From NCBI GenBank assembly GCA_964614915.1, contig CAZTNC010000015.1, positions 19,096-83,095 on the forward strand: 64,000 nucleotides of DNA, given 5' to 3'. The stretch comes from an uncultured Thiotrichales bacterium. GTDB lineage: Bacteria; Pseudomonadota; Gammaproteobacteria; UBA4575. The position numbers and the translations under genes are program-made. This document shows, in pieces, positions 2,495 through 50,229 of the stretch. The notes beneath the pieces are model-generated. The model saw nothing but the letters and a program-made list of their open reading frames with translations. It had not been told where the DNA came from and did not search any database. Within the stretch, counting starts at the first letter, position 1, and each line of letters opens with the position of its first letter.

Positions 2495-2520
2495 GGCAGC
2501 CCTAGCACAACCACGCGATG

Positions 2521-3640: not shown

Positions 3641-3645
3641 CCGTC

Positions 3646-4194: not shown

Positions 4195-4208
4195 CTCTCT
4201 CCGAGCCG

Positions 4209-4236
4209 TTATAAATGCTATAATTAGCGTTTATAA
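4209..4236. promoter_or_regulatory. 7-bp-arm palindrome TTATAAA-N14-TTTATAA enclosing TATAAT, about 205 bp upstream of gltA
   Basis: read directly from sequence; candidate promoter or operator for citrate synthase. Confidence 0.3.
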
Positions 4237-4440
4237 GAACAGAACGTTGCTTGCTGTAACAGCGAAGCGCCATAACGACATCTTGTTTGGCAAAAGGCGT
4301 TCAGACGATAGAAGCCAGTCTGTTCGTGTAGTGCCGGGTCCACGCTGAATTTTCTTGCATGAAGACAGAGGCCGTCCCTGTCGCTCATGAATGACTTGCA
4401 CGCAAACACTTTTCGTATAACCACAAGGAACTGACCTCTC

Positions 4441-5751
4441 ATGGCAGAGCGCACTGTTACGGTAACCGACAACACGACCGGAAAGGCGGTCGAATTGCCC
4501 GTATTGGAGGGCACCAACGGCCCTCGCACCATCGATATTGGGAAACTGTACAAGGGCCTGGGCTATTTCACCTATGACCCGGGCTTTGTTTCCACGGCCA
4601 GCTGTGACAGCCGCATCACTTTTATCGACGGCGAACAGGGCCTGCTGCGTTACCGGGGCTATCCGATTGAACAGCTGGCCGAGCACAGTTCCTTCCTAGA
4701 GGTCTGCTACCTGCTCCTGCACGGCGAGCTTCCGAACAAGGACGCCTTCGATGCCTTTGAGGAGCGGCTGAAGATGCATACCCTGCTCGATGAGAAGATG
4801 CGCCGCTTCTACTTGGGTTTTCACAACAACTCGCACCCGATGGCTATGATGGTGGCTACGGTGGGCGCGATGTCCGCCTTCTACCATGACCAGATCGATG
4901 TGCACGATGCCGCTTCCAGGGAAACGGCCGCCTACCGCCTGATTGCCAAAGTACCGACCATGGCCGCCTGGGTCTACAAGTACACGGTGGGCCAACCCTT
5001 CATGTACCCAGACAATCGTCTGGACTATGTGTCGAACTTCCTGTACATGATGTTCGGGGTACCTTCCATGAGTTACCGTCCGAGCCCCTCGTTCGTGCGG
5101 GCCATGGACCTAATACTCATATTGCATGCTGACCACGAGCAGAATGCCTCCACCTCCACCGTACGACTGGCCGGTAGTTCGGGAGCTAACCCCTATGCCG
5201 CCTTATCCGCTGGCATCAGTTCGCTCTGGGGTCCTGCCCACGGCGGGGCGAATGAAGCCGTCATCAACATGCTTGAAGACATTGTGCAGTCCGGCAAGGA
5301 CGTCAACTACTACATCGAACGGGCCAAGGACAAGAACTCCAGGTTCCGGTTAATGGGATTCGGCCACCGAGTCTACAAGAACTATGACCCGCGCGCGAAG
5401 ATCATCCGGGAAGTCTGTCACCAGCTGTTGAGCGAACTTGGCGATGACAATCCCAATCGACCCCTGTTCGATACCGCCATGGAACTCGAGCGCATTGCTC
5501 TGGAGGACGATTACTTCATTCAGCGCAAGCTGTACCCGAATGTGGACTTCTACTCCGGGATCATTTTGCGTGCGATGGGAATCCCGCTGAACATGTTTAC
5601 CGTGATCTTTGCCCTGGCCCGTACGGTCGGCTGGATTTCCCATTGGAAAGAACACATGAGCGACCCGCAGGCCCGCATCGGCCGTCCCCGTCAGCTGTAT
5701 ACGGGAGAGGACCAGCGCGACTACGCGCACATCGACGAGCGCGACGACTAG
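4441..5751 (+). CDS. gltA: citrate synthase (type II, hexameric-type)
   Basis: 436 aa, full-length similarity to GltA including the catalytic His/Asp regions (GFGHRVYK). Confidence 0.92.
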
Positions 5752-6902
5752 CCGATTCCGGTAAAGAATTCCCTCAGTACAGGCGCGAAGTTCGCTTCAT
5801 CGATTAGGAACGAGTCGTGCCCCTGAATGGAGGGCAGGCGCACGAACTTGATGTCGCACCCGGCCTTGTTGATTCCGTTATAGATCTCTTCTTGCTGCTT
5901 GATCGGGAAAAGAATATCCGTCTCGACCCCGACGACCAGCGTCCTGATGGAATGGATCTTGGCGAGCCCTGCATTGACGGACCCCCCATGGTCAGCGACA
6001 TCAAACCAGTCCATGGCCCTTGACAGGTACAGATAGCTGTTGGCATCGAAGGCATCTACAAATTTGTGGGCGTTGTAGTCGAGATAGGATTCGACTTCAA
6101 ACTCGATGCCGAACTTGTTCTTGGCCTTGCGCCCAGAGTCCACCCGCGCACGGTTGAAACGCTGGTTCCATTCTTCACCCGCGCGGTAGGACACAAGGCC
6201 GATCTTCCTGGCCAGGACCATGCCGTCTTTGGGTTCCTTGTCAGGCTGGTAATGGCCGCCTTCCCAAGCGGGGTCACAGCGCACGATTTCACGCTGTATG
6301 GAACGCATGGCGATGGCCAGCGGCAAGGACCGGCAGGCCGAAGAGATCGTTACAAGATTACCCACTTCGTCGGGATACTGCAGCGCATAGGCAAGCGAGG
6401 TCATGCCTCCCATGGAAGATCCAACTACTGCACAAAGATGATCGACCCCCAGTTCCTGGACGGCATGATGGCCAGCCTTGGCAATGTCCTCGATCGAGAG
6501 ATCCGGGAAATCCAGGCCGTATGACCTGCCGGTTCTGGGATTAACCGAACCCGGTCCTGTCGTACCAAAGCAGCCTCCCAGGGAATTGACACACACGACA
6601 AAAAAGCGGTTGGTATCAATCGGCTTGCCTGGCCCGATCATGTACTCCCACCAACCTGGGGACGGGTCCTCACTGGACGAACAGGCATGTGCAGTAGGTG
6701 ATAGGCCGGTAAAGACAAGCACGGCATTGTCCCGCATCTCCGAGAGCTTGCCCCAGGATTCATAAGCCACCACCACCTCGGGCAGGGTCCCGCCACGGTG
6801 CATGTGGAAGTCGGTCGTACCGTAATCGCCGTGCAGTTCCACGAAGCGGGTAGCCGGTGGTGTCCAGCGAGACGTCGGTTCCAATTTTTTTGCTGTACTC
6901 AT
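5748..6902 (-). CDS. metX: homoserine O-acyltransferase MetX (alpha/beta hydrolase)
   Basis: 384 aa; GSSMGG nucleophile elbow and the overall MetX pattern; convergent with gltA and overlapping its stop codon. Confidence 0.85.
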
Positions 6903-6974
6903 TGCATAAATGTACCTTTTTCCATTTCCGGAGGAAACACTACCAAGGGGTATGGTATGGCCTGTCTGGCCGGT

Positions 6975-7463
6975 TTAACGGGGCCTGGACGTAAGAACCA
7001 GCGAGAGTACCAGTAACCCGATGAACAAAATCAGTGTTTGTTGCGGGATGGTCAGTCCTGCGAAGGTCCAGTGCACCTCTGCGCATGAGCCCGAGGCTGT
7101 GAATACCTTCTTGGCGACCTCAAGGACTGGCAAGGTTTCAAGCATGAAATACAGGTCCGGCCCGCATTCGGGTACCTGATCGGCCGGCAGGCCCTGCAAC
7201 CAGACACGTCTTCCAGCAAGCCCGACCCCAGCGAGGCTGAGCGCGGTCGCCAGTGTCCCGTATATTCTTGACAGGAAGGTTTTGGGGTTGGAGATCAGGG
7301 CCAAGGCAAATACGATCCCGAGAGCTACCAGCACGAGGCGGTCCAGAATGCACAGGGGGCAAGGGTCCAGATTCAGCGCGCCCTCAAGATAAATGATTGC
7401 AAACAGCAGCGAAGCGATGCATGCCAGAAATCCATAAAAATTCAGCGCTCGGTAGCCGAACAT
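6975..7463 (-). CDS. dsbB: disulfide bond formation protein B
   Basis: 162 aa with four TM helices, CPLC in the first periplasmic loop and a second Cys pair (C...C) in loop 2. Confidence 0.8.
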   Translation of the reverse strand: MFGYRALNFYGFLACIASLLFAIIYLEGALNLDPCPLCILDRLVLVALGIVFALALISNPKTFLSRIYGTLATALSLAGVGLAGRRVWLQGLPADQVPECGPDLYFMLETLPVLEVAKKVFTASGSCAEVHWTFAGLTIPQQTLILFIGLLVLSLVLTSRPR

Positions 7464-7472
7464 GTCCAGGTC

Positions 7473-8015
7473 TCAGGTCTGTTCCATGCCGTGGAGGATG
7501 GCCGCCAGTCCCCGGTACCAGCCGGTAATGTCCTGTAGCGAGAACGCAGCATTCGCTGGGCTCGGGTTGGGGCTGACAAATACGGCGGAATGCCCGATGG
7601 TGATGGATTGCATACCCCAGTCTATCGGCGCATCGGTATGTCCCGTGTACTTGAAGAAGTTTTTCGCGGCCATTTTGCCGTGAAACCAGCAGATACCCGG
7701 CGCGTACCGCAGGATTTTTTTCTCTAGCACAGGCGCCCATTCCCTGTAGTCCGCAGCCCTCAAAGCCTTCGCGGATGGCGAGGGGCGCTTGACCACATCC
7801 GTGAATCCAATCCGGTGCAACTGGAAGAGCCTCGCCTGGAATTGTGGGCCGGGTATCACCTTTTCCGAGACCAAGCCACTGGCATCCAGCGCTCTCCAGA
7901 ACCGGTTTCTCGGATTGGCAAAGTAAAAGCCCTTCTCGACCGAAATGCTGGAAGGATTGAGTCCGATAGACAGTGCTTTCAGTTCGTGATCAACGTAGTC
8001 AGGGAGTGTGTCCAT
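7473..8015 (-). CDS. mug: G/U mismatch-specific DNA glycosylase (Mug/TDG family)
   Basis: ORF open to 8126, but the likely start is the ATG at 8015 (MDTLPDYV...); GLNPS ... NRFW ... LPNPSP motifs of the Mug family. Confidence 0.75.
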   Translation of the reverse strand: MDTLPDYVDHELKALSIGLNPSSISVEKGFYFANPRNRFWRALDASGLVSEKVIPGPQFQARLFQLHRIGFTDVVKRPSPSAKALRAADYREWAPVLEKKILRYAPGICWFHGKMAAKNFFKYTGHTDAPIDWGMQSITIGHSAVFVSPNPSPANAAFSLQDITGWYRGLAAILHGMEQT

Positions 8016-8142
8016 ACGGTGCCTGCAAGATTGCGGATTGAGGTATCGCAGTGCATTCGATACCCTATACCCTGATTCGAGTATAAAAGTAAACGCCATC
8101 TTGCCCGTGCCTGCCGATCCGACCAATTATTCCATCACCACC

Positions 8143-8838
8143 ATGGAACTGGGGCCGATGGAGAACTTTGTCTACCTGCTCACCGATCACGCCACGCAAA
8201 GTACCGCCGTCGTCGACCCGGCATGGGATGTGCCCGTGATCTTGGATTGTGCCCGCAAGCTGGGTGTCACCATTACCGATATCCTGCTGACCCACAGTCA
8301 CCATGATCATATCAATGGCATTGACCAGTTGCTGGACCAGTGTGATGCCGAAGTACACCTGCTGAAATCCGAGGCGGCCTTCTGGGGTGCCGATCTCGTC
8401 CGCCCGAGTCTCCATCATGGAGGAGACCGTATCAAGATCGGGAAAACCGAAATCGAGATATTGCACACCCCTGGACACACCCCTGGCTCGGCCTGCTACC
8501 GCATCGGCAATGATCTCGTCACGGGCGATACGCTTTTTGTGTTCGGCTGTGGGCGCTGCGATTTGCGAGGCGGCGATCCGGAGCAGATGCACACCACGCT
8601 AAAACGGTTTAGAGATGAACTTCCCGAATCGATCGTCATCTACCCGGGCCATCATTATGCAGAGCAGGCGACCTCAACCCTGGCGGACGAACTCGAGGGC
8701 AATCCCTTCATGCACTTTACCGAGGTGGACCAGTTTGTCCGTTACCGAATGAAAGTCCATGACCAGATTCGGAGCTCGCCCTACGCGGCGGTCACAAAAG
8801 AAGAAATCGAAGTTCTCTCCAGCCAGAAGACACCTTGA
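8143..8838 (+). CDS. MBL-fold metallo-hydrolase (glyoxalase II-like)
   Basis: THSHHDH metal-binding motif; ORF open from 8008, but the ATG at 8143 (MELGPMENFVYLL) avoids overlap with the divergent mug. Confidence 0.7.
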   Translation: MELGPMENFVYLLTDHATQSTAVVDPAWDVPVILDCARKLGVTITDILLTHSHHDHINGIDQLLDQCDAEVHLLKSEAAFWGADLVRPSLHHGGDRIKIGKTEIEILHTPGHTPGSACYRIGNDLVTGDTLFVFGCGRCDLRGGDPEQMHTTLKRFRDELPESIVIYPGHHYAEQATSTLADELEGNPFMHFTEVDQFVRYRMKVHDQIRSSPYAAVTKEEIEVLSSQKTP

Positions 8839-8862
8839 ATAGAGCCAGGCCCTATCCTGGGG

Positions 8863-9231
8863 TCATTCAATCTCTTGGCTCAGACGGGCCAGGATGCCAG
8901 GGATTTCCTTTGCCGCCCCTAGGTAGGGAGTTGACGTGATTCGCACCTGCGGGTATTCCTGCCTGGCTTTCTCAATCTCTGCAGGGATATCCACGCTGAC
9001 ATGCCGACCTGCAGCAAGGAAATAGGGCAGCACCGTAATGTGTTTTGCACCTTTTCGCACACAGCCAAGCACCCCCTCGGAGATGGAGGGTTCGGTGATC
9101 TCCAGGAATGCGAAATCAACCCAGTCGAATTGATTCCCCGGAGTTTGTGCAATTTTTGCAGCCAGTGCCCGGATTTCATCACTGGAACCGGGATGGCGGC
9201 TGCCATGGGCAACCAGCAGCAATGCGTCCAT
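8863..9231 (-). CDS. cbiX: sirohydrochlorin chelatase CbiX (small form)
   Basis: about 120 aa; LLVAHGSR N-terminal motif and overall CbiX-small pattern; ATG at 9231 (TTG at 9237 is an alternative). Confidence 0.7.
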   Translation of the reverse strand: MDALLLVAHGSRHPGSSDEIRALAAKIAQTPGNQFDWVDFAFLEITEPSISEGVLGCVRKGAKHITVLPYFLAAGRHVSVDIPAEIEKARQEYPQVRITSTPYLGAAKEIPGILARLSQEIE

Positions 9232-9373
9232 TCGCAAATCCTAGCATGAACGTCGTGCTGCAGCGTATTTTGGCCGCGCCTGCATGAAGGCAAGGTCGAC
9301 GAGGCCAGCACAGCGGCACTTTGGTTTACTAATGTAGCAATCCTCTGTATAACGCACCCGAACAGAGGTTTTC

Positions 9374-9817
9374 ATGACCGAAATCACGCTAGAAATCGCC
9401 AATACAATCATTGATGCTGCCCTCCGGGAAGGCCGCACGCGCAAGCTGGCACCACTTACAGTTGCCGTACTGGATGCCGGCGGCCACCTCAAGGCTTTGT
9501 CGCGGGCGGATGGCGCAAGCTTCATGCGCCCGATGATGGCCGTAGCAAAGGCCTGGGGCGCGATCGGTGTCGGTGTCTCATCACGCACACTGGGCGAGAT
9601 GGGCGAGCAGCGGCCAATGTTCATGAATGCCCTGGTCCAGGTTGCTGACCAGCGGCTTTTACCCGTGCCCGGAGGCGTGCTCGTCCGAGATTCCGACGAT
9701 GCGATCATTGGTGCAGTCGGCATCTCCGGCGATGTGTCCGACCAGGACGAATCTTGTGCCGTTGCGGGAATCAGTGAGGCCGGGTTGCAGGCGGATACGG
9801 GAAAGCCCCAGGAGTAA
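9374..9817 (+). CDS. GlcG/HbpS-like haem-binding protein (DUF336)
   Basis: 147 aa, ...GAVGISGD... C-terminal motif typical of DUF336/GlcG; last core gene before the AT-rich island. Confidence 0.7.
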   Translation: MTEITLEIANTIIDAALREGRTRKLAPLTVAVLDAGGHLKALSRADGASFMRPMMAVAKAWGAIGVGVSSRTLGEMGEQRPMFMNALVQVADQRLLPVPGGVLVRDSDDAIIGAVGISGDVSDQDESCAVAGISEAGLQADTGKPQE

Positions 9818-9823
9818 ATTTTG
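9815..9823. repeat. left copy of a 9-bp direct repeat TAAATTTTG flanking the AT-rich island (right copy at 13695-13703)
   Basis: exact 9-mer at both GC-content transitions; an inverted TTATGTAG/CTACATAA lies just inside each copy. Confidence 0.3.
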
Positions 9824-9848
9824 GGAATTATGTAGCTAAGTTGACAAA

Positions 9849-10034
9849 ATGAATAAAGCAGAAAAGACAAAAAGAGAATATTTTGCTGAACTTAGTAAAA
9901 ATTATAAAAAACGTAAAGAGTATGAATGTGAATTAAATAATGCCATAACCATGGTTCATAAAACATTTGCTGTTTTAGATAAATTACTTAACGACTACTA
10001 CAAACTGTTTCCTGAACGGAAAAAGCAGAAATAA
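9849..10034 (+). CDS. hypothetical Lys-rich small protein (61 aa)
   Basis: ORF in very AT-rich DNA, where long ORFs are unlikely by chance; no convincing RBS. Confidence 0.2.
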   Translation: MNKAEKTKREYFAELSKNYKKRKEYECELNNAITMVHKTFAVLDKLLNDYYKLFPERKKQK

Positions 10035-10212
10035 GTTTTTCCATTTTCTCTAATTTCTCTATCAACGTTTCCGAAGCGTTTTCTAACTTTACGATTTCTT
10101 TTCTTAGTGATTTTGATAGATGGTGACCAGCTATTGTTTCTGTTTTAACTAATGTCTCTATCAGAACTAGCATCATTATTTCCAGGGCTTCGTAATTCCC
10201 ATTATTTCCCAT
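9988..10212 (-). CDS. hypothetical coiled-coil small protein (74 aa)
   Basis: GAGGGG Shine-Dalgarno 8 nt upstream of the ATG; heptad-like Lys/Glu-rich sequence; overlaps the 3' end of ORF 9849-10034 convergently. Confidence 0.35.
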   Translation of the reverse strand: MGNNGNYEALEIMMLVLIETLVKTETIAGHHLSKSLRKEIVKLENASETLIEKLEKMEKLISAFSVQETVCSSR

Positions 10213-10250
10213 CTTTATCCCCTCATTTTAGTTTTAAATAAATACGAAAC

Positions 10251-10279
10251 TTGACAAAATAATATTATTTCACTAATAT
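10251..10279 (+). promoter_or_regulatory. sigma70-type promoter TTGACA-N17-TAATAT upstream of the IS1595 transposase
   Basis: consensus -35 and near-consensus -10 with 17-bp spacer, about 80 bp upstream of the transposase ATG. Confidence 0.5.
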
Positions 10280-10358
10280 AGTGTTATGTTAATTCGTAAT
10301 GTAACACCTTACAGTGCAGGTTAAAAACAAACCAGTCGTCCTGAGTCTCTACGAAATC

Positions 10359-11246
10359 ATGGATCGATACAAGACCAAGGAAGACGCCATTTGCTACTTT
10401 GAAAAAATGCGATGGGGTGACAAGCCCGTATGCGTCAAGTGTGGTTGTACAGGCAGGATTACGGCACAGAAGAAAGTCGGTGATTACTGGTGTGGAGACT
10501 GCCGGAGTTACTTTAATGCTTTCACTGGCACTCCACTAGAACGCAACAAGGTAGACCCTCGCAAGTGGATTTACGCCACCTACACCCTGATGACTTCACG
10601 GAAAGGTATTTCCAGCCTTCAACTGTCCAAAGAAATTGGTGTGCAGCAGCGCACTGCCTGGTACATGCTGCACCGGCTGCGTCTGGCCTGCGGCGACAAT
10701 ATGGAAGCCTTGCACGGTGAAGTTGAAATGGATGCAACATACATCGGTGGACTTGAAAGGAACAAGCACGCTGACAAAAGGTTGAAGTCCGGCAGAGGTA
10801 CGGTAGGTAAACAGGCTGTGCTCGGTATGAAACAGCGCGAAGGACGGGTAAAGGCCATATCGGTTGAGGGTGAAGACAAGGCAACTATTCACAGTGCTGT
10901 TCTTGCAAATATTGAAGTGGGTACGACTATCTATACAGATGATCATAGGGGCTACAAGAATATCGGCGGGACTATATACAAACATCAAACCGTCAAGCAT
11001 TCGGCAAAGGAATACGTGAATGGCATGGCTCATACCAACAGCGTCGAGTCTGTATGGTCAGTGCTCAAACGCGGCTTCAATGGTGTCTATCACAATTGGA
11101 GCAAAAAGCATTGCCAACAGTACGTGAACGAATTTACCTTTCGGCTGAATGAAGGGAATTGTGATCGAGACACCCAGGACCGGCTCGACGATCTGTTCAA
11201 GGCGATGTCGGGTAAAACGATAACTTATAGAGCGCTGACTTCTTGA
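10359..11246 (+). CDS. IS1595 family transposase (N-terminal zinc ribbon plus DDE_Tnp_IS1595)
   Basis: CVKCGC...CGDC zinc ribbon; IYTDDHRGY, HTNSVESVWSVLKR and YVNEFTFRLN motifs characteristic of IS1595/ISXO2-like transposases; ORF open from 10314, ATG at 10359. Confidence 0.85.
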   Translation: MDRYKTKEDAICYFEKMRWGDKPVCVKCGCTGRITAQKKVGDYWCGDCRSYFNAFTGTPLERNKVDPRKWIYATYTLMTSRKGISSLQLSKEIGVQQRTAWYMLHRLRLACGDNMEALHGEVEMDATYIGGLERNKHADKRLKSGRGTVGKQAVLGMKQREGRVKAISVEGEDKATIHSAVLANIEVGTTIYTDDHRGYKNIGGTIYKHQTVKHSAKEYVNGMAHTNSVESVWSVLKRGFNGVYHNWSKKHCQQYVNEFTFRLNEGNCDRDTQDRLDDLFKAMSGKTITYRALTS

Positions 11247-11279
11247 GCGTAGTCTTGCTGTTATTCAAACAGCGTTCAG

Positions 11280-11813
11280 TTAAGCGGAATTTTCTGCACG
11301 TTTAAAATCTTTTGCAGAAAACCGGTACCAGTTGCGGAACAAATGTTGCCACCACTTTACTGGTTGAAAATCATCTGAGCCAAACCCAAGCGCCTGTGAT
11401 GCGGCATTTCCGCACTCAGCATTAAGAGCGTGATAGATAGCAGGTTCATCCTCATAAACGCTGAGTATTTCTTGACGCCACTTATGTATTTCCTTTTCAT
11501 CAGCTTTATACACGTCGATCATCTTGGCAATTTCATAAAAACGCTTCGCAAGAAATTCATGGTTACGTGCCCTGTCTGCCAGGCCCCACACCATGTTGAT
11601 AGCCCCTATTGTAGTGGGTATAAGCATGATAAACATGGCAACTGCTTTGTTGGCTTCTGCAAGCTGCCACACGGCATAACTGCCTGACAGCAATACTGCT
11701 ACCATCAGCCACCTGTGCCATTTATCAAAAAAAGATCGTCGTGCAGTGTGGTAGCGAGCGCTACGGTCACAATCATGCAGAAAATCTTTTGCTTCCTGTT
11801 GCAGATCAGTCAT
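11280..11813 (-). CDS. two-TM membrane protein with about 100-aa cytoplasmic C-terminal domain (SLATT-like architecture)
   Basis: 177 aa; TM helices at about aa 35-51 and 57-78; start ATG overlaps the stop of the upstream peptide gene (ATGACTGA). Confidence 0.55.
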   Translation of the reverse strand: MTDLQQEAKDFLHDCDRSARYHTARRSFFDKWHRWLMVAVLLSGSYAVWQLAEANKAVAMFIMLIPTTIGAINMVWGLADRARNHEFLAKRFYEIAKMIDVYKADEKEIHKWRQEILSVYEDEPAIYHALNAECGNAASQALGFGSDDFQPVKWWQHLFRNWYRFSAKDFKRAENSA

Positions 11814-11949
11814 TTTTTCTCGGCGGTGTTACATCTCTTGGAGGTTCGTTAGAGTGAGTCTTATCTGGCGAATCATGTGCAGGTATATCTTTAGGTGGCG
11901 GCGGCGGCGGTTGGCGAACAGGTTGCGGCTCTTTTCTATCCTTTGACAT
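11806..11949 (-). CDS. proline-rich small protein (46 aa, MSKDRKEPQPVRQPPPPPPKD...)
   Basis: not in the supplied ORF track (<60 aa); AAGGAG Shine-Dalgarno 6 nt upstream of the ATG at 11949; stop overlaps the start of the downstream 2-TM gene. Confidence 0.35.
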   Translation of the reverse strand: MSKDRKEPQPVRQPPPPPPKDIPAHDSPDKTHSNEPPRDVTPPRKND

Positions 11950-11994
11950 GGTCATCTCCTTAAAAATACTAAGTTTAGTTTAACATTTTTTTAA

Positions 11995-12996
11995 TTATTC
12001 ATGAGGTAGAGGACAATCTATGCAGCCTCCTGGAGGTGGTGTAGCACCTGAATTGGAATTCTTGAAAGCGGCAGTTGACCCATAAAAAGCCCCGACAAAA
12101 CTTACAGGGCCTACATTGGTTATTGTCGCAGAACCTCCATGGGTTCCTGCCACCATGCGAGGGTTGCCATCAGAATCATCTTCAGACGAGAATCGACCAC
12201 CCCAACGTCCTCCCATATTGGCAACACCCAGTTGCGGATTCTGAAGCACCACCTCGCTTCCAGTAAACGAGCCGTCAGCATTGATGCTGGCGTCAATTAG
12301 CTGGAGTACGAATGGAGTCAGCACGTACCGGCCTCCCTGTAGCAATTCTATGTTCGTAATATCCCCGTCAACGGTCATGGCCCCGGTACTGAAGTCTGCT
12401 TCAAGAAACAGGCTGCCCCGGTACTCTCCCGTAGCCGAACCAAGTACGTAGGTGCCACCTGTAATCCCGTTGTAATCGACTTCACCTACGTTTACGGGAA
12501 TTGTCGGCTGTGTAGACGTTGAAAATTCTTCGCCGTCCACAAAAGCCCCGATTTCCACGCTTCCACCCGATGATCTGTAGGACCAGTACCCACCCGCCAG
12601 GTAGTCCGTAGCATCACCCGAATTCCAGTCCACCAACACACCGGCTCTAACGTTGCTTCCAACCAAAGTACCTGTCTGGGACATTCTTCCCGTAACTGAA
12701 CTGGTTTCAGGATTCTGGATGATGGAAGAACCGCTCGTATTCAATGTAAATGAACTACCTCCTGCACGGGCTACCGTGACTTCAAAACTTGATCCGGGTG
12801 TGAAACGTGTACTGATGGTGTCCGAAGCTACTGCCTGGATAATACTTGTCCCAAACACCGGTGGTGACATGGCGGCTCGTTCTGCGGCATCACTGTAGGA
12901 TACGGGTGGGTTGACAGGGGCAGGATCGCTTCCGCCTCCACCTCCGCCTCCACAGGCGGACAGCAGCACTAAGGCTGCACATAGAATTCTTCGCAT
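11995..12996 (-). CDS. surface-lipoprotein-like protein with fHbp/TbpB-type C-terminal beta-barrel signature
   Basis: lipobox LLSAC followed by a GGGGGGGS tether; G-YRG-LF-EADF-TG-M-VDGDI resembles the G.YRG..F...A.F.DF...G.I motif of neisserial fHbp/TbpB barrels; ATG at 12996 with a GAGG Shine-Dalgarno (ORF open from GTG 13035). Confidence 0.6.
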   Translation of the reverse strand: MRRILCAALVLLSACGGGGGGGSDPAPVNPPVSYSDAAERAAMSPPVFGTSIIQAVASDTISTRFTPGSSFEVTVARAGGSSFTLNTSGSSIIQNPETSSVTGRMSQTGTLVGSNVRAGVLVDWNSGDATDYLAGGYWSYRSSGGSVEIGAFVDGEEFSTSTQPTIPVNVGEVDYNGITGGTYVLGSATGEYRGSLFLEADFSTGAMTVDGDITNIELLQGGRYVLTPFVLQLIDASINADGSFTGSEVVLQNPQLGVANMGGRWGGRFSSEDDSDGNPRMVAGTHGGSATITNVGPVSFVGAFYGSTAAFKNSNSGATPPPGGCIDCPLPHE

Positions 12997-13182
12997 GGTT
13001 GCCTCGCGTAAAGTGACGTTTTTTACTTCCGACACAAGGGTGCCGGGCCATTGTCACTGTACGCAAGTATGCGGATAGTTCCTGCCTATTCGCCGTGTGT
13101 CAGATAGCTACTTCTGACACATATATTCGGCTGTTGTATTCAGTAGGTAACCCGACTCTGGATTACTCACGCACAGTGACAG

Positions 13183-13191
13183 TGTTATAAT
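13183..13191 (+). promoter_or_regulatory. extended -10 promoter TGTTATAAT for the small two-gene cassette
   Basis: TGnTATAAT about 30 bp upstream of the AAGGA Shine-Dalgarno and ATG at 13223. Confidence 0.45.
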
Positions 13192-13222
13192 AGGCTTACA
13201 GATTAATCTGCACAAGGACCAA

Positions 13223-13386
13223 TGGATAAGATTCAGGAAAAGATAGACAAGGTTGCTAAAACCTTGTTAAACATGCCTGCTCCACAAGAGCACAAACGCA
13301 CGATTCCCACCAAGAAAGACCTTGAACGCAAGTTTGTCATGCGGGTTGACCGCAAAGGCAAACCATCTGTACGTGAGATCAAATGA
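13223..13386 (+). CDS. hypothetical hydrophilic small protein (54 aa)
   Basis: not in the ORF track (<60 aa); good Shine-Dalgarno; stop overlaps the start of the next gene (ATGA). Confidence 0.35.
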
Positions 13387-13580
13387 TGATTGTAGAATTT
13401 TTAACAATGATCACGGCTGCTGCTGTGATTGTAGGGATGCTTGTAAAATTATATTTTAAAATTGATCGATTAGAAAAAAGACTAGATAAGCTAGGTATTA
13501 CCAAAGTCACATACAGTAAATACCCTGCAGACATTGATCATATGGAAGACGGAGAAATCTGGGTGCAATACGAAAAATAG
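13383..13580 (+). CDS. hypothetical small membrane protein (65 aa, one N-terminal TM helix)
   Basis: translationally coupled to the ORF at 13223-13386. Confidence 0.4.
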   Translation: MMIVEFLTMITAAAVIVGMLVKLYFKIDRLEKRLDKLGITKVTYSKYPADIDHMEDGEIWVQYEK

Positions 13581-13694
13581 CGTTTAAGTTTAAATATTAT
13601 TTTTCACGTATCTTCTGCTTGAATCTCATCATATAAGAACTAAAACTTGGCTAAGGTATCCCCTGTACCCTGCCAAGTTAACTACATAAGTCCC

Positions 13695-13703
13695 TAAATT
13701 TTG
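13695..13703. repeat. right copy of the 9-bp direct repeat TAAATTTTG flanking the AT-rich island
   Basis: exact match to 9815-9823; followed by the hairpin CCGGGC-N9-GCCCGG. Confidence 0.3.
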
Positions 13704-13776
13704 TACCGGGCGGTGATGCTGCCCGGAATCGAACACCAGCAAGATTTTCGTTCCACCGTGTATTTTGGGAGAGACT

Positions 13777-14961
13777 ATGATTAAGCCTCACGGAGCCGAT
13801 GCCTTAAAGCCTTTGTACGTCAGTGATGAGGTGCAGCGCAAGCAGTTCGTACAGGAGGCGGAACACCTGCCCTCCGTACTGTTGAACTCGGCAGCTTCCT
13901 GCAACGTCGTAATGCTCGGAGCCGGCTACTTCACGCCACTTTCCGGGTTCATGAATATCCAGGACTCGATCTCGGTCGCCAATACCATGCATACATGTGA
14001 CGGGCTGTTCTGGCCCGTCCCGATCATGAACCTTGTACAGGACGCATCTTCCATAGAACCCGGCATGCGCATTGCGCTGAAAGACCCGAATATGGATGGG
14101 TTCCCCGTGATTGCGATCCAGGAGGTTGAAGCCGTTGAAGAACTCGGTGAAGACCAGATGGCCACCATCGTGGAGAAAACGTACCGCACCACGGATCAGG
14201 ACCACCCTGGTGTGGCAACCATCATGGCATCGGGGAGGACAGTGATCTCAGGCCCTATCCAGGTGCTCAATTACAGCTATTTCCAGGATGAGTTCCCGGA
14301 AACGTTCCGTACCGCAGTCGAAATCCGTGATGAAATCACCGAGCGAGGCTGGCATACCGTGGTGGGATTCCAGACCCGCAATCCGATGCATCGTGCCCAT
14401 GAAGAGCTGTGCAAGATGGCGCAGCAGGCCACGGGCGCGGACGGTATCCTGGTCCACATGCTGCTGGGGAAGCTGAAACCCGGAGACATCCCAGCCCCCG
14501 TTCGGGATGCCGCGATTCGCAAAATGGTCGAGCTCTATTTCCCGCCCAACAGCGTCATGATTACAGGCTACGGATTCGACATGCTGTATGCCGGCCCGCG
14601 TGAAGCTGTCCTGCATGCGGTCTTTCGCCAGAACTGTGGCTGTACGCATTTCATCATCGGCCGCGACCATGCCGGAGTGGGCGACTACTACGGGGCGTTT
14701 GATGCCCAGGAAATTTTCGATGAGGAAGTGCCCCCGGACGCGCTGGAGATCGAGATCTTTCGTGCCGACCACACGGCCTATTCCAAAAAGCTGAACCAGG
14801 TCGTCATGATGCGTGATGCACCTGACCACCAAAAAGAGGACTTTGTTCTGTTGTCCGGCACGAAGGTCCGTGCCATGCTGGCGGCCGGCGAATCCCTGCC
14901 GAAAGAATTTGCCAGACCGGAAGTCGCCGAAATCCTGATGGATTTCTACCAGAGCGCATAA
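13777..14961 (+). CDS. sat: sulfate adenylyltransferase (ATP sulfurylase, dissimilatory-type Sat)
   Basis: QTRN and GRDHAG motifs; full-length match to homo-oligomeric ATP sulfurylases of sulfur oxidisers; ATG at 13777 after GGGAGAG. Confidence 0.9.
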   Translation: MIKPHGADALKPLYVSDEVQRKQFVQEAEHLPSVLLNSAASCNVVMLGAGYFTPLSGFMNIQDSISVANTMHTCDGLFWPVPIMNLVQDASSIEPGMRIALKDPNMDGFPVIAIQEVEAVEELGEDQMATIVEKTYRTTDQDHPGVATIMASGRTVISGPIQVLNYSYFQDEFPETFRTAVEIRDEITERGWHTVVGFQTRNPMHRAHEELCKMAQQATGADGILVHMLLGKLKPGDIPAPVRDAAIRKMVELYFPPNSVMITGYGFDMLYAGPREAVLHAVFRQNCGCTHFIIGRDHAGVGDYYGAFDAQEIFDEEVPPDALEIEIFRADHTAYSKKLNQVVMMRDAPDHQKEDFVLLSGTKVRAMLAAGESLPKEFARPEVAEILMDFYQSA

Positions 14962-15005
14962 GCTGCTGCGCACCGCCTGCAGACCACGGCGACGTCTGCA
15001 CGCAC

Positions 15006-15839
15006 CTAGTTTCCAGGCGGCATCTCGTCCATGAGCAAGCCGGGATCGAGGCGCTGCTGATGCCAGTTCATCCTCCAGTCCAGATGAGGGCCGGTGACCC
15101 GGCCTGTGGCGCCCACCAGGGCAATGGGCTGCCCCTGCTCCACGTACTCATCCACCTCGACCAGAATCTCCTGCAGGTGCAAAAAGGACGATGACAGGTT
15201 CTGGCCGTGGTCCACAACTAGCGTGCCTCCTGAAAAATACATGTCCTCGGCGTAAGTCACTCGCCCGGAGGCAGGTGCGAGAACCCGTGTCCCGACGGGT
15301 GCGGCAATATCAATACCATAATGGGGCTGGCGCGGCTGGCCGTTGAGAATTCGCTGGCTGCCGTAAATACCCGAAATTCGCCCCCGTACAGGCCATATGA
15401 AGCCTGCTTTGAAATCCATGCGATCCTCATCGAGGCTTCGCGCAGCTGCAATTTCTGCACTTTCCCTGCGAACCCGGCGCATGATCTGTGGCCCCGGATT
15501 CACCTGGGCGTCTGGCAATCCATCGATGCGCTGGATGTCATACTCACGTCCTGCGATCTCAAACGTGTGCGAGCGCACAGCTCCTTCTTTCGTCTGAACG
15601 GTGACGGTTGCCTGGGGAGGGTAGTCCCGGCCAAACCCGAGAATGAATTCGCCGCTCGAGGAAACACGCACGGGACGCCCGTTCGTCCATACCTTCGAGT
15701 TCGGGCTCACTTGCCCAAAAGCCAGTCCACCCTGAATCAGGTTGCCAGTCAGTGAAAGATTTCCCGGTCCGGCATTTGCGAGCAGGAAAATTGTCAACCC
15801 GGCCCACGCGAGCGCAATCCTGGCACAGGCATGCATCAT
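15006..15839 (-). CDS. M23 family metallopeptidase (LytM domain)
   Basis: HYGIDIAAPVGTRV...VDHGQNLSSSFLHL matches the HxxxD / HxH LytM signature; signal peptide from the ATG at 15839. Confidence 0.75.
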   Translation of the reverse strand: MMHACARIALAWAGLTIFLLANAGPGNLSLTGNLIQGGLAFGQVSPNSKVWTNGRPVRVSSSGEFILGFGRDYPPQATVTVQTKEGAVRSHTFEIAGREYDIQRIDGLPDAQVNPGPQIMRRVRRESAEIAAARSLDEDRMDFKAGFIWPVRGRISGIYGSQRILNGQPRQPHYGIDIAAPVGTRVLAPASGRVTYAEDMYFSGGTLVVDHGQNLSSSFLHLQEILVEVDEYVEQGQPIALVGATGRVTGPHLDWRMNWHQQRLDPGLLMDEMPPGN

Positions 15840-15992
15840 CCGGTAATCCAGCACCGAGCCGGTGCCCTGCCCTCTTGCATGGCCTGGTCCTCTAGAAAAT
15901 TTTGTCAATTAATGCCCGACAGACGGGCTGCCCGGTCTTTCAACCGGGCAGAATACTGGCGATTGCCAGAAAATCAGATAGCGAGTGCGCCC

Positions 15993-16694
15993 TCAGGCGG
16001 GTCCGTACTGAAACGCCGAGGACAGCCCGGCCTTGCCGGATTCGTACCAGTCAACGCCGTTGTCATGGTAACGAGCCCGCTTGGACATATGCAACGTGAT
16101 CGGGTTATGCGGCGCAACCGCAAGCGGTGTGTGGGCCAGGATGATGTCCTTGCCGTCTTCCCCTTTGATGGGGTGGATATCAATTTCCCCTGCGCCTTCC
16201 ACGACCAGGTGCTTCCTCTCGGGAGTATCCATGATGCTGATGTTGGCCTTCTCAATACTGAGGACCTCGCTGATCAGGCTCGCGATGATGCCCAGGTGGC
16301 CTCCGCCTCCCCCGGTCCACAATGTCTTCAACGCTTCGAACTGCGCATCGTTCGCCTGATTATCAACGTACAGGGCTGCGCGCCAGTTGCCGTTGAGAAG
16401 ATTCCCGGGGGCATGCAGCCAGACCGACACTTTCATGCCGTCCAGGCTGACATCACCGTAGTGACCCTTGTCGATTTTCCAGCCAACGAGAGCCGTGCAT
16501 GAACCCACGGTCGGGTCATTCAGCAAAAGACAGGGGCATACGTTATCGCAGGTACAGGACTCGAAATAGTTGCCCATCACTTTCCAGTCCACTGCGTTTT
16601 CGGTCGAAGCCTGCGAAAGCCCAAGTCCTGTCGACCCCAAGGCCAACGTGCTTCCGGTAGCTTTTAAAAATTTTCTTCTGTTAAAAATTGACAT
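15993..16694 (-). CDS. DUF1326-like protein, Tat-exported paralogue
   Basis: twin-arginine signal MSIFNRRKFLKATGS...SQA; conserved NYFESCTCDNVCPC core; AGGAGA Shine-Dalgarno; family assignment (DUF1326, PF07040) is from memory. Confidence 0.65.
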   Translation of the reverse strand: MSIFNRRKFLKATGSTLALGSTGLGLSQASTENAVDWKVMGNYFESCTCDNVCPCLLLNDPTVGSCTALVGWKIDKGHYGDVSLDGMKVSVWLHAPGNLLNGNWRAALYVDNQANDAQFEALKTLWTGGGGGHLGIIASLISEVLSIEKANISIMDTPERKHLVVEGAGEIDIHPIKGEDGKDIILAHTPLAVAPHNPITLHMSKRARYHDNGVDWYESGKAGLSSAFQYGPA

Positions 16695-17069
16695 GCTAGT
16701 TTCTCCTGCCATCTCATCTGACATCGCTCCGGTTCGCATGAGCCAAACCGGTCGTCTCAAAAAATAGTCTATCGCATACTATAGCCCAAAATGGCTACTC
16801 TTTAAACATGCCTGTTCGTTTCCGGACCTGCTCGACACCGCATTCCTGGCAGGATCTCGGAATATGAACCGGATCAACAGGTTAGACGGTTCTCCTGTCT
16901 ATCTCCAAATGAGTGGGGCGCTGCCTTGCCAAAAACGGCAGCGGAAGAGAAATGGACGGGGCCCGAGTGGGCCGCGGCATGCCATTCGTGCCGCCTGCGC
17001 ACTGGAACCCGAGCCTGCGAAGGCCCGGATTTCAATGCATGTGCTGTTTATTAGGAGCCTGGACCTGGC

Positions 17070-17678
17070 TTAGCCGGGCCCGTACTGAAATGGTGACGCC
17101 AGACCGGCTTTGCCGGATTCATTCCAGTCGATACCATTATCGCTGTACTGTGCAATCTTGGACTCATGCAGGGTGACCGCATTTCCCGGAGCCACTGCAA
17201 GCGGCATGCCGGATACCATGACAGGCTTGCCCTCTTCTCCTTCCATTGCAACGATCTCGTTTTCCCCGATCCCCTCAATCACCAGGTGCTTCCTTTCCGG
17301 CGTGCTCTCAAAGCTGATGTTTGCTTTCTTGACGCTCAGAACATCGCTGACCAGGCCTGCAATCACCGCCAGGTGACCACCGCCTTCGCCACTCCACAAG
17401 GCGCCGATAGCATCGAACTGTGCATCATCTGCACTCTCATCTACGTACAGCGCCAAACGCCAGTTGCCTGCCGTGAGGTTGCCCGGCGCATGCAGCCAGA
17501 CTGCAACCTTGATTCCGTCCAGACTGACATCGCCATAATGTCCCTTCTCGATGCTCCAGCCGACGAGAGCCGTACATGTACCCACGGTCGGATCTTTCAA
17601 TAATAGACATGGGCATAAATTGTCACAGGTGCAAGACTCGAAATAGTTGCCTTCCACACTCCAGTCTGTCGTCGCCAT
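17070..17678 (-). CDS. DUF1326-like protein, cytoplasmic paralogue
   Basis: about 65% identical to the upstream paralogue, same Cys motif, no signal peptide; GGGAGG Shine-Dalgarno before the ATG at 17678. Confidence 0.65.
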   Translation of the reverse strand: MATTDWSVEGNYFESCTCDNLCPCLLLKDPTVGTCTALVGWSIEKGHYGDVSLDGIKVAVWLHAPGNLTAGNWRLALYVDESADDAQFDAIGALWSGEGGGHLAVIAGLVSDVLSVKKANISFESTPERKHLVIEGIGENEIVAMEGEEGKPVMVSGMPLAVAPGNAVTLHESKIAQYSDNGIDWNESGKAGLASPFQYGPG

Positions 17679-17930
17679 AGCGTCACCTCCCGGCCTTCTG
17701 GATAAATACGAAGCCTGCCAGCAACGCTGGCAGAACTGTGTTTGAGTATAGCCTAAAAAAGTGGGGCTTGAAACACCCCACGGCGGCGGCAATCCTGTGC
17801 TGGACTTTCATGTATACAGGCAATCCAGTATGATCCTGCTGATGATTCTGACTGTTTGTTTGACTCCCGCGACGACACGGTTTGCATGCCCGTAAACCGG
17901 TCATCTGACCGACCCAAGTAAGGCACTCCC

Positions 17931-18728
17931 ATGAACACCCCTCCCCCTGTTGCAGGACTTTCTCCACGAGACAAAAAGATCGTCATCTCAGGACTGATCC
18001 TGGTGGCGGGTGTGAGCTGGCTGTACATAATTTACATGGCTTGGGCGATGGAGAACATGCACCTGGTCGATATGTGGATGCCTCCGATGGGTGGCATGCG
18101 TGCATGGACGGCATGGGACTTCCTCATGCTCTTTCTCATGTGGTACATCATGATGATTGCCATGATGACCCCGAGCGTTTCGCCGATGGTCATGATGTTC
18201 ACCACCGTGAGCCGGCAAAAGAAGCTCAGACAACAGCCCTATGCACCTACCTTCATTTTCCTGGCGGGATACCTGGTCGCCTGGGCTCTGTTCAGTTTTT
18301 TTGCAAGTGCCGTCCAGTGGCCCCTGCATGGAAGCAAACTGCTCGATCCCATGATGTACACCGACAGCTACCTGCTGAGCGGCTCGATCCTGGTGCTGGC
18401 AGGGGTCTACCAAATGACGCCGATGAAAGACGCATGTCTGAACCAGTGCAGAACCCCGCTCGGCTTTTTGATGGCTGCCTGGAAGGATGGCAAGAGCGGA
18501 GCCTTCCAGATGGGCCTGTACCACGGGATGTTCTGTGTGGGTTGCTGTTGGGCACTGATGGCAGTGCTGCTGGCTGTAGGCGTGATGAACATGCTCTGGG
18601 TTTTGCTGATTGCAGTCTTTGTTCTTCTTGAAAAAATTCTTCCATTCTCTGCGACCACGACTCGCATGATCACGGGCGCAGGGCTGATTATCTGGGGCGG
18701 TTACTGGCTGAGCCTTCACCCCTGGTAA
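17931..18728 (+). CDS. DUF2182-like predicted metal-binding integral membrane protein
   Basis: 265 aa, Met/His-rich with multiple TM helices and a CVGCC motif; divergent from the DUF1326-like genes, a pairing I recall as recurrent. Confidence 0.6.
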   Translation: MNTPPPVAGLSPRDKKIVISGLILVAGVSWLYIIYMAWAMENMHLVDMWMPPMGGMRAWTAWDFLMLFLMWYIMMIAMMTPSVSPMVMMFTTVSRQKKLRQQPYAPTFIFLAGYLVAWALFSFFASAVQWPLHGSKLLDPMMYTDSYLLSGSILVLAGVYQMTPMKDACLNQCRTPLGFLMAAWKDGKSGAFQMGLYHGMFCVGCCWALMAVLLAVGVMNMLWVLLIAVFVLLEKILPFSATTTRMITGAGLIIWGGYWLSLHPW

Positions 18729-19009
18729 GAGATCTCTGCTGAAAGTTTTCTGGCATTTCAGTATCCAGTGAAATTCGTATAGCGCACGATCCAGTTCTGG
18801 GCTTTTGCTTCACTCCCAGGGTCCCAGTTCCCCGGTGCATTTTCTAGTACATCAAGTCTGGAATACACACCGTGGCATCAACATCCCTGACAAAACGTTG
18901 ATGGATAAAATCGATGGCAGCCATCATTATTTTCCGATGTTCCGAATCGGCTCTTTACCTAAAATAGGATCATCGTATTTATAAAGGGAATCGACCATAG
19001 GAGCGAATC

Positions 19010-19501: not shown

Positions 19502-19628
19502 GCAGGGCATCCGGTTGAAGATTTCATGCAGCCCATGCCGTGAAGCGCTATAGTGTGCACTGGTTCTAGATGGCAGGGAATGTCTATGCTTTCATAGCGA
19601 CCCCTACACGATACGAGGAGGTGGATAC

Positions 19629-48023: not shown

Positions 48024-50229
<2,206 letters not shown>

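Follow-up and report, generated by a model that had tools for sequence, protein, structure and literature searches.

A passenger-carrying IS1595-family element, probably a transporter IS, between a GlcG/HbpS-like gene and sat

The window analysed here is a 64-kb stretch of DNA (64,000 nt), in which an AT-rich segment separates two housekeeping genes, a GlcG/HbpS-like gene and sat. The following features were located in and beside this segment.

9815–9822, no strand: left copy of the target-site duplication, TAAATTTT, whose TAA terminates the GlcG/HbpS-like gene.
9823–9846, plus strand: left terminal inverted repeat (IRL), GGGAATTATGTAGCTAAGTTGACA; the consensus also bounds nine related elements.
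9849–10034, plus strand: orf61, a putative Lys/Glu-rich ORF of 61 aa in the AT-rich left cargo slot (27% GC).
9988–10212, minus strand: orf74, a putative ORF of 74 aa, convergent and overlapping with orf61.
10251–10279, plus strand: promoter-like site for the transposase, TTGACA-17-TAATAT.
10314–11246, plus strand: intact IS1595-family transposase of 310 aa, with a Zn ribbon and a DDE domain.
11280–11813, minus strand: SLATT-like two-transmembrane (2TM) membrane protein of 177 aa (phrog_11791, 1e-32).
11806–11955, minus strand: putative Pro-rich ORF of 49 aa, overlapping the start of the SLATT-like gene by 8 bp.
11995–12996, minus strand: lipoprotein of 333 aa; it has lipobox LLSAC, and its predicted fold is that of an all-beta surface lipoprotein.
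13049–13184, no strand: conserved structured non-coding element between cargo and orf54, with a 12-bp closing stem and three hairpins.
13222–13386, plus strand: orf54, a conserved basic protein of 54 aa (tblastn and profile search).
13383–13580, plus strand: orf65 (34% GC), 65 aa, occupying the right cargo slot, with a transmembrane helix at its N terminus.
13671–13694, minus strand: right terminal inverted repeat (IRR), reverse complement GGGACTTATGTAGTTAACTTGGCA, pairing with IRL.
13695–13702, no strand: right copy of the target-site duplication, TAAATTTT, matching the left copy at 8/8 positions.
13706–13726, plus strand: hairpin CCGGGC-N9-GCCCGG in host DNA outside the element; the closest relative (L002) has homologous sequence downstream of its GlcG-like stop codon.

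The 24-bp terminal inverted repeats are imperfect (20/24 identical) and lie directly inside a perfect 8-bp direct repeat; synteny with related genomes breaks off at their ends. An inverted match of 19/24 is expected by chance only about 0.005 times per window. IRR differs at 1 of its 24 positions from the right inverted repeat common to four related elements (L083, L084, L104 and L105). An earlier note on this DNA had described a 9-bp direct repeat, TAAATTTTG, which is indeed found at 9815–9823 and 13695–13703, but only 8 bp (TAAATTTT) are duplicated. The ninth base, a G, is the first base of IRL on the left side and native flank on the right, so that its match is a coincidence. The inverted 8-mers reported just inside the repeat copies, TTATGTAG (9828–9835) and CTACATAA (13682–13689), are also present, as part of the longer 24-bp repeats. 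The 9-mer TAAATTTTG occurs three times in the 64-kb window against an expectation of 0.34; the third copy, at 57380, is unrelated to the element.

The empty site can be seen directly in related genomes. In an alignment with the six closest relatives (Sat 89–98% identical), window position 9820 joins position 13705; all six lack the element and have the GlcG-like gene directly adjacent to sat, as the earlier note had predicted. The closest relative carries a single homologous copy of the target, TAAGTTCT. The element was acquired horizontally, and its insertion duplicated the target site; of the two kinds of duplication proposed earlier, that of an att site is discarded. The hairpin noted beyond the right copy is confirmed as native intergenic DNA, and no T-run follows it.

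The description of the region as AT-rich also stands. The element has 45.0% GC compared with 54.8 ± 2.8% in equal-size windows elsewhere (z = −3.5), where the minimum is 48.6%. The low GC is not evenly spread but mosaic, with 30% GC in the left 418 bp, 49% in the transposase gene, 53% in the lipoprotein gene and 34% in orf65. Third-position GC (GC3) is 0.23–0.54 in the genes of the element versus 0.56–0.70 in flanking genes, and by both measures the element is foreign.

The transposase matches the Pfam domains DDE_Tnp_IS1595 (PF12762, 1e-42) and Zn_ribbon_IS1595 (PF12760, 1e-6) and the NCBIfam model transpos_IS1595 (NF033547, 7e-55). In an alignment of 25 sequences the Zn ribbon residues (C40, C43, C60 and C63) and the residues of the DDE domain (D140, D209, E245 and K252) are invariant. 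A total of 4,420 homologues were found; in a plasmid collection the nearest annotated proteins reach no more than 41% identity and are named only "IS1595 family transposase". Homology with the related L083 element starts at about 10241. Members of the IS1595 family produce 8-bp duplications and have a DDE domain and an N-terminal Zn finger, the latter missing only in the IS1016 group (PMC8101967). The window element shows the DDE_Tnp_IS1595 domain with its acidic triad, the N-terminal Zn ribbon, an 8-bp duplication and terminal inverted repeats. The earlier statement that no integrase or recombinase is adjacent is correct for tyrosine and serine recombinase domains, but the IS1595 transposase is itself the recombinase.

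Elements with the same ends but different 8-bp duplications were found at other loci, with transposases 53–87% identical to that of the window and lengths of 1.9–5.9 kb. Mobility is shown for related units. The 87%-identical transposase belongs to a unit of 3,982 bp, of which a single 2.5-Mb contig has two copies (L083 and L084); they are 99.97% identical and have common ends but different duplications, AAATTAAA and GAAACTTG. An end consensus, GGGAATTATGTAnnTAAnTTGACA, is common to the further elements of 1.9–5.9 kb, and at eight other independent insertion sites of relatives the 8-bp duplication is perfect and differs in sequence. Of the 10 tabulated loci, 8 have a perfect duplication, as does L105; those without a clean duplication are L089 (3/8) and L097 (6/8, or 8/8 after a one-base shift of the boundary). 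The element itself occurs once in the 64-kb window, and its sole other public occurrence is this same insertion (L001), so we infer its mobility from its duplication, the empty sites and its relatives, not from multiple copies. Whether this copy is active at present is uncertain, because its two inverted repeats mismatch at 4 of 24 positions.

Going towards the right end, the final gene in 8 of 11 distinct related elements is the small orf54. It was detected by tblastn in L083/L084, L085, L086, L089, L096 and L097, and is also carried by the L104 and L105 elements; none was found by tblastn in L098/L099. Its product has an invariant motif, PTKKDLERKFVMRVDRKG, and 20 of the 24 nucleotide differences from the L083 copy fall at third codon positions. 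A profile search recovered 80 representative clusters, while searches of Pfam and of PDB folds gave no match. The gene had previously been regarded as the first of a two-gene coupled cassette, and the start of orf65 does overlap its stop codon (ATGA), but orf54 is a conserved core gene of the IS lineage and not cargo. In the structured non-coding element upstream, 56 nt show no difference between the window, L083 and L104, against an identity of only 79% between the window and L083 transposase genes. It shows six compensatory pairs in one hairpin and folding z-scores of −3.7 (minus strand) and −2.1 (plus strand), matches no Rfam family, and is followed by a TATAAT box (13186–13191). The core of the lineage is IRL, the promoter and transposase, orf54 and IRR. 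Variable cargo occupies mainly the slot between transposase and orf54, and also those between IRL and the transposase promoter and between orf54 and IRR.

The gene content was as the earlier note had listed it (an IS1595 transposase, an operon, a coupled cassette and tiny ORFs). The cargo consists of the SLATT-like 2TM protein, the Pro-rich peptide, the HpuA/fHbp-like surface lipoprotein and small AT-rich ORFs. The only strong match of the 177-aa protein, phrog_11791, is a family of unknown function; weaker matches were to a PADLOC 2TM effector (3e-4) and to NCBIfam SLATT_4 (3e-4, at 20.5 bits below the cut-off of 55), and the protein is SLATT-like rather than a demonstrated SLATT member. The related L082 element carries a 50%-identical homologue in its left slot. 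Neither the 49-aa Pro-rich ORF nor orf61 has a match in family searches, Pfam and NCBIfam included, and orf61 and orf65 have no homologues among the related loci. The other left-slot ORF, orf74, contains a 14-mer resembling the inverted repeats (10187–10200). The lipoprotein has 133 homologues, none informatively named (one is labelled 'hypothetical protein'), and these are stand-alone genes in other genomic contexts. Its AlphaFold2 model (pLDDT 88.6) matched HpuA in a Foldseek search of the PDB (E = 2e-5), and fHbp and the barrel of NHBA with a probability of 1.0.

Insertion sequence-like elements that carry passenger genes have been termed transporter IS, or tIS (10.1101/2021.05.26.445724), and are known in the IS1595 and IS66 families (10.1101/2021.05.26.445724; PMC11891212). 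All of the cargo (the SLATT-like, Pro-rich and lipoprotein genes and the small ORFs) lies inside 9823–13694, and we consider it highly probable (about 0.92) that this interval is one 3,872-bp IS1595-family tIS. The terminal inverted repeats, the 8-bp duplication and the intact Zn-ribbon and DDE transposase together define this single unit. The element is real, sharply bounded and of an ordinary type. The earlier picture of a heterogeneous island with an unclear mobility mechanism can be set aside, as the exact ends are IS1595 inverted repeats and the recombinase lies inside: a tIS brings its own transposase. In the proposed mechanism, the 310-aa transposase would recognise both 24-bp inverted repeats and insert the complete element into AT-rich DNA; at this locus the target comprised the GlcG/HbpS-like stop codon and the 3′ flank of that gene, 74 bp upstream of sat. 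Repair of cuts staggered by 8 bp would leave the flanking TAAATTTT duplication. These catalytic steps are what we infer, as are the functions of orf54 and the cargo.

A genomic island moved by site-specific recombination, with the direct repeat as a duplicated att core, was the leading idea of the earlier note and would fit a direct repeat at both boundaries, foreign composition and accessory genes. It is nevertheless very improbable, given that the element contains no tyrosine or serine recombinase, no tRNA gene occurs within 5000–20000 (the lack of an adjacent one had been recorded correctly), and inverted repeats of the kind seen in DDE elements directly abut the direct repeat. In addition, the 8-bp repeat of related elements differs at every site, with no common TAAATTTTG core, which indicates target duplication and not a fixed att. 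An integrase-mobilised island or integrative element was rejected on the same absence of a recombinase domain and tRNA and on the flanking repeats differing per site, and a composite (compound) transposon on the single transposase gene and the absence from the window of a second copy of any element part.

Successive events might instead have placed a small, transposase-only IS1595 element in or beside an unrelated AT-rich insert, the outer inverted repeats belonging to only a part; one version takes 9823–10200 as a separate miniature element. The strongly mosaic composition (30% to 53% GC), the inverted orientation of the 14-mer at 10187–10200 (12/14) and the break at 10164 of the public contig carrying the same insertion all lean this way. 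However, no inverted-repeat pair closely surrounds the transposase, the perfect 8-bp duplication is found only at the outermost ends, the right end beside orf54 is a conserved arrangement in relatives, and those relatives move as whole units, cargo included. Mosaic GC would be expected anyway if one tIS captured cargo from several sources, and the reading by successive events is unlikely, if less so than an att-flanked island. Least probable of all is an ancestral region lost by deletion in the relatives, with direct and inverted repeats arising by chance. Presence and absence alone give no direction, and that is its sole support. The element is missing in six relatives at several levels of divergence, and L002 keeps a single target copy; the breakpoints correspond to the inverted-repeat ends to the base, GC3 is foreign, and inverted (20/24) and direct (8/8) repeats exactly at the junctions are implausible by chance.

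As a tIS in the sense of ISfinder and TnCentral, the window element combines an IS structure with genes unrelated to transposition and does not differ in kind. The usual tIS cargo is regulators, methyltransferases and resistance genes (PMC11891212), whereas here it is a SLATT-like 2TM protein and a surface lipoprotein. The metagenomic elements L083/L084, L085, L089, L096, L097, L098/L099 and L105 resemble it in inverted-repeat consensus and AT-rich 8-bp duplications. In those compared (all but L105) the transposases are 62–87% identical to that of the window, and all except L098/L099 have orf54 as the last gene. Their cargo differs from that of the element studied here and is often linked to defence, with type II restriction-modification in L089 and L096, MTase-HNH in L085, PDC-S42 in L098/L099 and HEC-09/NYN in L083/L084. 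A strong defence signature is absent from the window cargo. The 333-aa lipoprotein appears, from its model, to be like the neisserial HpuA, fHbp and NHBA in its lipobox, all-beta architecture and C-terminal barrel (Foldseek E = 2e-5 to 1e-3, probability about 1.0), although whole-chain TM-scores are low (0.25–0.37). It has no significant sequence similarity to these proteins and no PDB sequence match, its NCBIfam slam_lipo score (18 bits) is below the cut-off of 80, and no Slam translocon gene lies inside the element.

Siguier, Gagnevin and Chandler (2009) reportedly described the IS1595 family, with an ISNwi1 subgroup whose passenger-carrying members are listed as "ISNwi1+" in ISfinder. We take the end consensus of this subgroup to be ggnnatTAT and the size of its passenger-carrying members to be 1.75–4.75 kb. 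The element ends read GGGAATTAT and GGGACTTAT with a length of 3,872 bp, and by their fit to this consensus and size they appear to resemble ISNwi1-subgroup ends. Like that subgroup, the window element has one Zn-ribbon and DDE transposase, an 8-bp duplication and passengers inside its inverted repeats. We know of no description of either orf54 or the structured non-coding element for the IS1595 family. The window lineage differs from the ISNwi1 subgroup in having this conserved second small gene at its right end and, in one sub-clade, the structured non-coding element upstream of it.

The longest inverted repeat of the region joins the two edges of the AT-rich island that lies between the gene for a GlcG/HbpS-like protein and sat. 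Once its near-palindromic flank was trimmed, a 24-bp imperfect terminal inverted repeat remained, the left and right arms of which (IRL and IRR) match at 20 of 24 positions. An 8-bp target-site duplication, TAAATTTT, stands directly outside both arms. The 9-bp direct repeat TAAATTTTG described in the earlier note is present at 9815–9823 and 13695–13703, but only 8 bp of it are duplicated target; the ninth matching base, a G, opens IRL at the left end and belongs to native flank at the right. With 24-bp inverted repeats abutted by an 8-bp direct repeat, the inserted unit is thus 9823–13694, or 3,872 bp, and it is a transporter IS (tIS) of the IS1595 family.

Features of the insertion (positions in the window)
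9823–9846, IRL, GGGAATTATGTAGCTAAGTTGACA
10251–10279, strong promoter-like site, TTGACA-17-TAATAT
10314–11246, transposase ORF, 310 aa
11280–11813, minus strand, SLATT-like protein of 177 aa with two predicted transmembrane helices
overlapping the start of the 177-aa gene, proline-rich ORF of 49 aa
11995–12996, minus strand, protein of 333 aa with lipobox LLSAC
13049–13191, structured block upstream of orf54
13186–13191, TATAAT box 3′ of the structured element
13222–13386, orf54, basic protein of 54 aa
13671–13694, IRR, reverse complement GGGACTTATGTAGTTAACTTGGCA

The inverted 8-mers TTATGTAG and CTACATAA just inside the two repeat copies, and the hairpin CCGGGC-N9-GCCCGG after the right copy (13706–13726), were found as first described, and no tRNA gene was found in 5000–20000, in line with the reported absence of an adjacent one. 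The drop in GC was also borne out: the element has 45.0%, the lowest of all, against a mean of 54.8% (SD 2.8, minimum 48.6%) in equal-size windows elsewhere. It is itself a mosaic, with 30% in the left 418 bp, 49% in the transposase gene, 53% in the lipoprotein gene and 34% in orf65, a small ORF near the right end, and the GC3 of its genes is 0.23–0.54, compared with 0.56–0.70 for six flanking genes. Reduced GC (0.47–0.51 against about 0.56) is also seen in the composition profile at 34000–35500, 49000–51000 and 55500–58500. The last of these stretches contains, at 57380, a third copy of TAAATTTTG, which has three copies in the 64-kb window against 0.34 expected. Elsewhere, a 24-mer at 47980–48003 (GGGGATTATGTAGCAAAATCTACA) matches IRL at 19 of 24 positions (about 0.005 such matches expected per window); it stands without a partner end, about 60 bp upstream of a trxB-like ORF, and by its sequence may be an orphan IS end. 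A shorter IR-like 14-mer (GGGAATTACGAAGC, 12/14) lies in inverted orientation on the minus strand at 10187–10200, 365 bp inside the left end and within the small ORF orf74. The match may be accidental, or may be what is left of a nested miniature element or of a repeat. The sole other public contig with the insertion (L001) begins at window position 10164, 23 bp before this 14-mer.

When Sat was used to scan one genome per species, the matches were MAGs of uncultured Gammaproteobacteria, and several of the more distant ones are labelled Candidatus Porisulfidus, sponge-associated sulfur oxidisers. The expectation that the GlcG-like gene and sat would be adjacent in relatives was confirmed: in all six of the closest (Sat 89–98% identical) the alignment runs to about 9820 and continues directly from about 13705. 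The junction in the closest relative of the host locus (L002) is GGAGTAAGTTCTAGACCGGGCG, compared with GGAGTAAATTTTGTACCGGGCG for the reconstructed empty site of the window, and consists of one target copy followed by the same hairpin region. The empty site in six relatives and the single target copy in L002 support an insertion, and a deletion in the relatives is rejected on the same grounds. The mobility mechanism, previously considered unclear, can be specified, as the island is driven by the transposase that it contains and has the inverted repeats of that transposase for its edges. An att/integrase island is rejected, since the flanking 8-mers of related elements differ from site to site, and so is a compound transposon, there being a single transposase gene and no second copy of the element in the window.

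The transposase matches Pfam DDE_Tnp_IS1595 (1e-42) and Zn_ribbon_IS1595 (1e-6), and NCBIfam transpos_IS1595 (7e-55). In an alignment with 24 homologues (58–88% identity), residues D140, D209, E245 and K252 and the four cysteines of the Zn-ribbon are invariant, and the length is typical; judged from its sequence, the gene looks intact.

Exact-protein look-ups with the transposase and the lipoprotein returned only one other public contig (Logan), with the same insertion next to sat, and no second genomic site for the exact element; a scan of metagenomes for the transposase yielded only 11 loci. One 2.5-Mb contig encodes, at two places, a transposase (P0002) that is 87% identical to the one in the window. 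These loci, L083 and L084, have exactly 3,985 bp in common at 99.97% identity, bounded by GGGACTTATGTATTTAACTTGACA and TGTCAAGTTAACTACATAAGTCCC, and their 8-bp duplications differ (AAATTAAA and GAAACTTG, respectively). In this relative the whole unit, cargo included, has thus moved, and the exact element, which is present once in the window, would move likewise. Further elements, from 1,936 to 5,894 bp in length, end in the same inverted-repeat consensus, and the A+T content of the target duplications is 80%.

Related elements: length, flanking 8-mer, orf54 homologue and defence-related cargo (positions in each locus)
L083/L084: 3,982 bp; AAATTAAA / GAAACTTG; orf54 at L083 9173–9331; HEC-09, NYN domain (6e-41), at L083 7247–7867
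L085: 3,053 bp; CAAAAATG; orf54 at 7400–7552; methyltransferase-HNH fusion at 5907–7382
L086: orf54 at 3097–3246
L087: 1,936 bp; AAACTTCC
L088: 2,349 bp; CTGGAAAG
L089: 2,782 bp; clean duplication absent (3/8); orf54 at 3494–3643; C5 methyltransferase and type II restriction enzyme (4.5e-29) at 1876–3485
L096: orf54 at 10066–10215; methyltransferase and HinfI-type endonuclease at 7960–9921
L097: 2,857 bp; duplication 6/8, or 8/8 with the boundary moved one base; orf54 at 9544–9681
L098/L099: 2,594 / 2,637 bp; TTTTCTTT; PDC-S42, PADLOC candidate (3e-100), at L098 8361–9287
L104: orf54 at 6001–6165
L105: 5,894 bp (141–6034); ATAATTTA; orf54 at 5612–5773

The relatives listed with a length all carry cargo, and none comes down to the length of a bare IS. 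The largest member seen, L105, has perfect 24-bp inverted repeats and carries unknown proteins of 536 and 102 aa.

The window and L083 are homologous in four parts only: both inverted repeats, the promoter with the transposase (79% nucleotide identity, from window position 10241), and a block at 13033–13390 (82%) that includes orf54. By tblastn, orf54 homologues were located in the related elements of L083/L084, L085, L086, L089, L096 and L097, and in every one orf54 is the last gene before IRR and co-oriented with the transposase. With L104 and L105 included, the family holds this last position in 8 of 11 distinct related elements. Its members are about 52–57 aa long, with the motif PTKKDLERKFVMRVDRKG invariant in ten close sequences. 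Between the window and L083, 20 of 24 nucleotide differences in orf54 are at third codon positions, and the codon changes are 16 synonymous and 5 non-synonymous; on such sequence comparison, the family is under purifying selection. A profile search of 1.8 billion representatives gave 80 clusters, nearly all of 50–60 aa, while no family match was found in Pfam, NCBIfam, PADLOC or PHROG. The AlphaFold model (pLDDT 77) has a helix, a short helix and a β-hairpin, and found no match among PDB folds (best E = 2.6). We conclude that orf54 is a real conserved core gene of the IS lineage and not cargo; a role as a DNA-binding or regulatory accessory in transposition would be a guess. The main cargo slot lies between the transposase and orf54, and some members have further slots between IRL and the transposase promoter (window 9847–10240) and between orf54 and IRR (orf65 in the window).

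The 190 bp upstream of orf54 are conserved above the level of the coding regions: the window, L083 and L104 share an identical run of 56 bases, whereas the transposase genes of the window and L083 are only 79% identical. From these three sequences, RNAalifold predicts a 12-bp closing stem (13049–13060 with 13173–13184) around three hairpins, one of which shows compensatory changes at six pairs, among only three sequences. For folding, the minus strand has a z-score of −3.7 and the plus strand one of −2.1. In all three elements that have the block, cargo lies on the opposite strand, so that the block may be a divergent promoter/leader region, or else a small RNA; three sequences do not suffice to choose. 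An Rfam search of 9300–14000, this block included, gave nothing credible, and its invariant core was not found in a scan of viral contigs.

In the cargo of this copy, the 177-aa protein matches phrog_11791 (1e-32), which has no assigned function, and weakly resembles SLATT_4 and the PADLOC "2TM effector" (3e-4 each, below cut-off). A homologue (50% identical) occupies the left slot of the related element in L082. The 333-aa lipoprotein has 133 homologues, mostly from ENA metagenome assemblies and none informatively named; its profile found no relative among PDB sequences. Two homologues stand alone in unrelated contexts, one of them between his genes: in the histidine-biosynthesis cluster of another MAG (L102), a 57%-identical homologue (3833–4846) lies with small HTH genes between two His_biosynth-family (PF00977) genes, and appears to be an accessory insertion there also. 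The confident AlphaFold model of the 333-aa protein (pLDDT 88.6, pTM 0.85) resembles neisserial surface lipoproteins (HpuA, E = 2e-5; fHbp and the C-terminal barrel of NHBA, probability about 1.0), with low whole-chain TM-scores and no membership at the sequence level. On this model, "surface-lipoprotein-like β-barrel protein" describes it best. The AT-rich putative genes orf61, orf74 and orf65 had no homologues by tblastn in the related loci compared.

Relatives frequently carry cargo connected with defence, including type II restriction-modification systems in L089 and L096. The IS1595 lineage might be a dedicated cargo vehicle with a conserved right-end module, composed of orf54 and, in a sub-clade, the structured element (13049–13191, about 135 nt), which would contain divergent promoters. 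The task of such a module would be to regulate transposition, or else to promote and control the expression of whichever cargo occupies the slot, and the SLATT-like, proline-rich and lipoprotein trio would possibly form an undescribed membrane-acting defence or exclusion module. This proposal is unlikely as it stands, at roughly one chance in five.

At the host locus, the GlcG/HbpS-like gene (Pfam HbpS-like, 5e-30) ends at the TAA of the duplicated target, which serves as its stop codon and leaves its ORF intact, and sat (TIGR00339, 8e-121) starts 74 bp past the right copy of the duplication. The native hairpin that followed the GlcG-like gene is now 3.9 kb away. As the two genes are only about 70–150 bp apart in relatives, the insertion, which now separates sat from what preceded it, may have deprived sat of transcription entering from upstream. 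Only orf54 and orf65 are oriented towards sat. No terminator-like site was found between them and sat (13580–13777), and sat may depend on read-through from the element. In annotations, all 3.9 kb should be masked, or be given a name as a single mobile element.

Together these elements make up a clade of transporter ISs of the IS1595 family in uncultured Gammaproteobacteria, with 1–5 kb of cargo, often defence genes, and a common uncharacterised small protein, offering a modest but concrete lead for IS biology and the mobility of defence systems. The term tIS denotes IS-like elements with passenger genes, known from the IS1595 and IS66 families (10.1101/2021.05.26.445724; also the part of PMC11891212 that cites Siguier et al. 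2009). The best matches in a plasmid search with the transposase were at most 41% identical and labelled only "IS1595 family transposase", and gave no subgroup name. In the ISfinder family table, members of the ISNwi1 subgroup have ends of the form ggnnatTAT, and those that carry passengers are 1.75–4.75 kb long. The ends of the element, GGGAATTAT and GGGACTTAT, fit this consensus, and the element, which inserted with its customary 8-bp duplication, is probably of the ISNwi1 type. The presence of orf54, the structured element and the defence-rich cargo of the clade is of specialist interest and does not warrant a new category; L105, at 5,894 bp, exceeds the size range of passenger elements of the ISNwi1 type.
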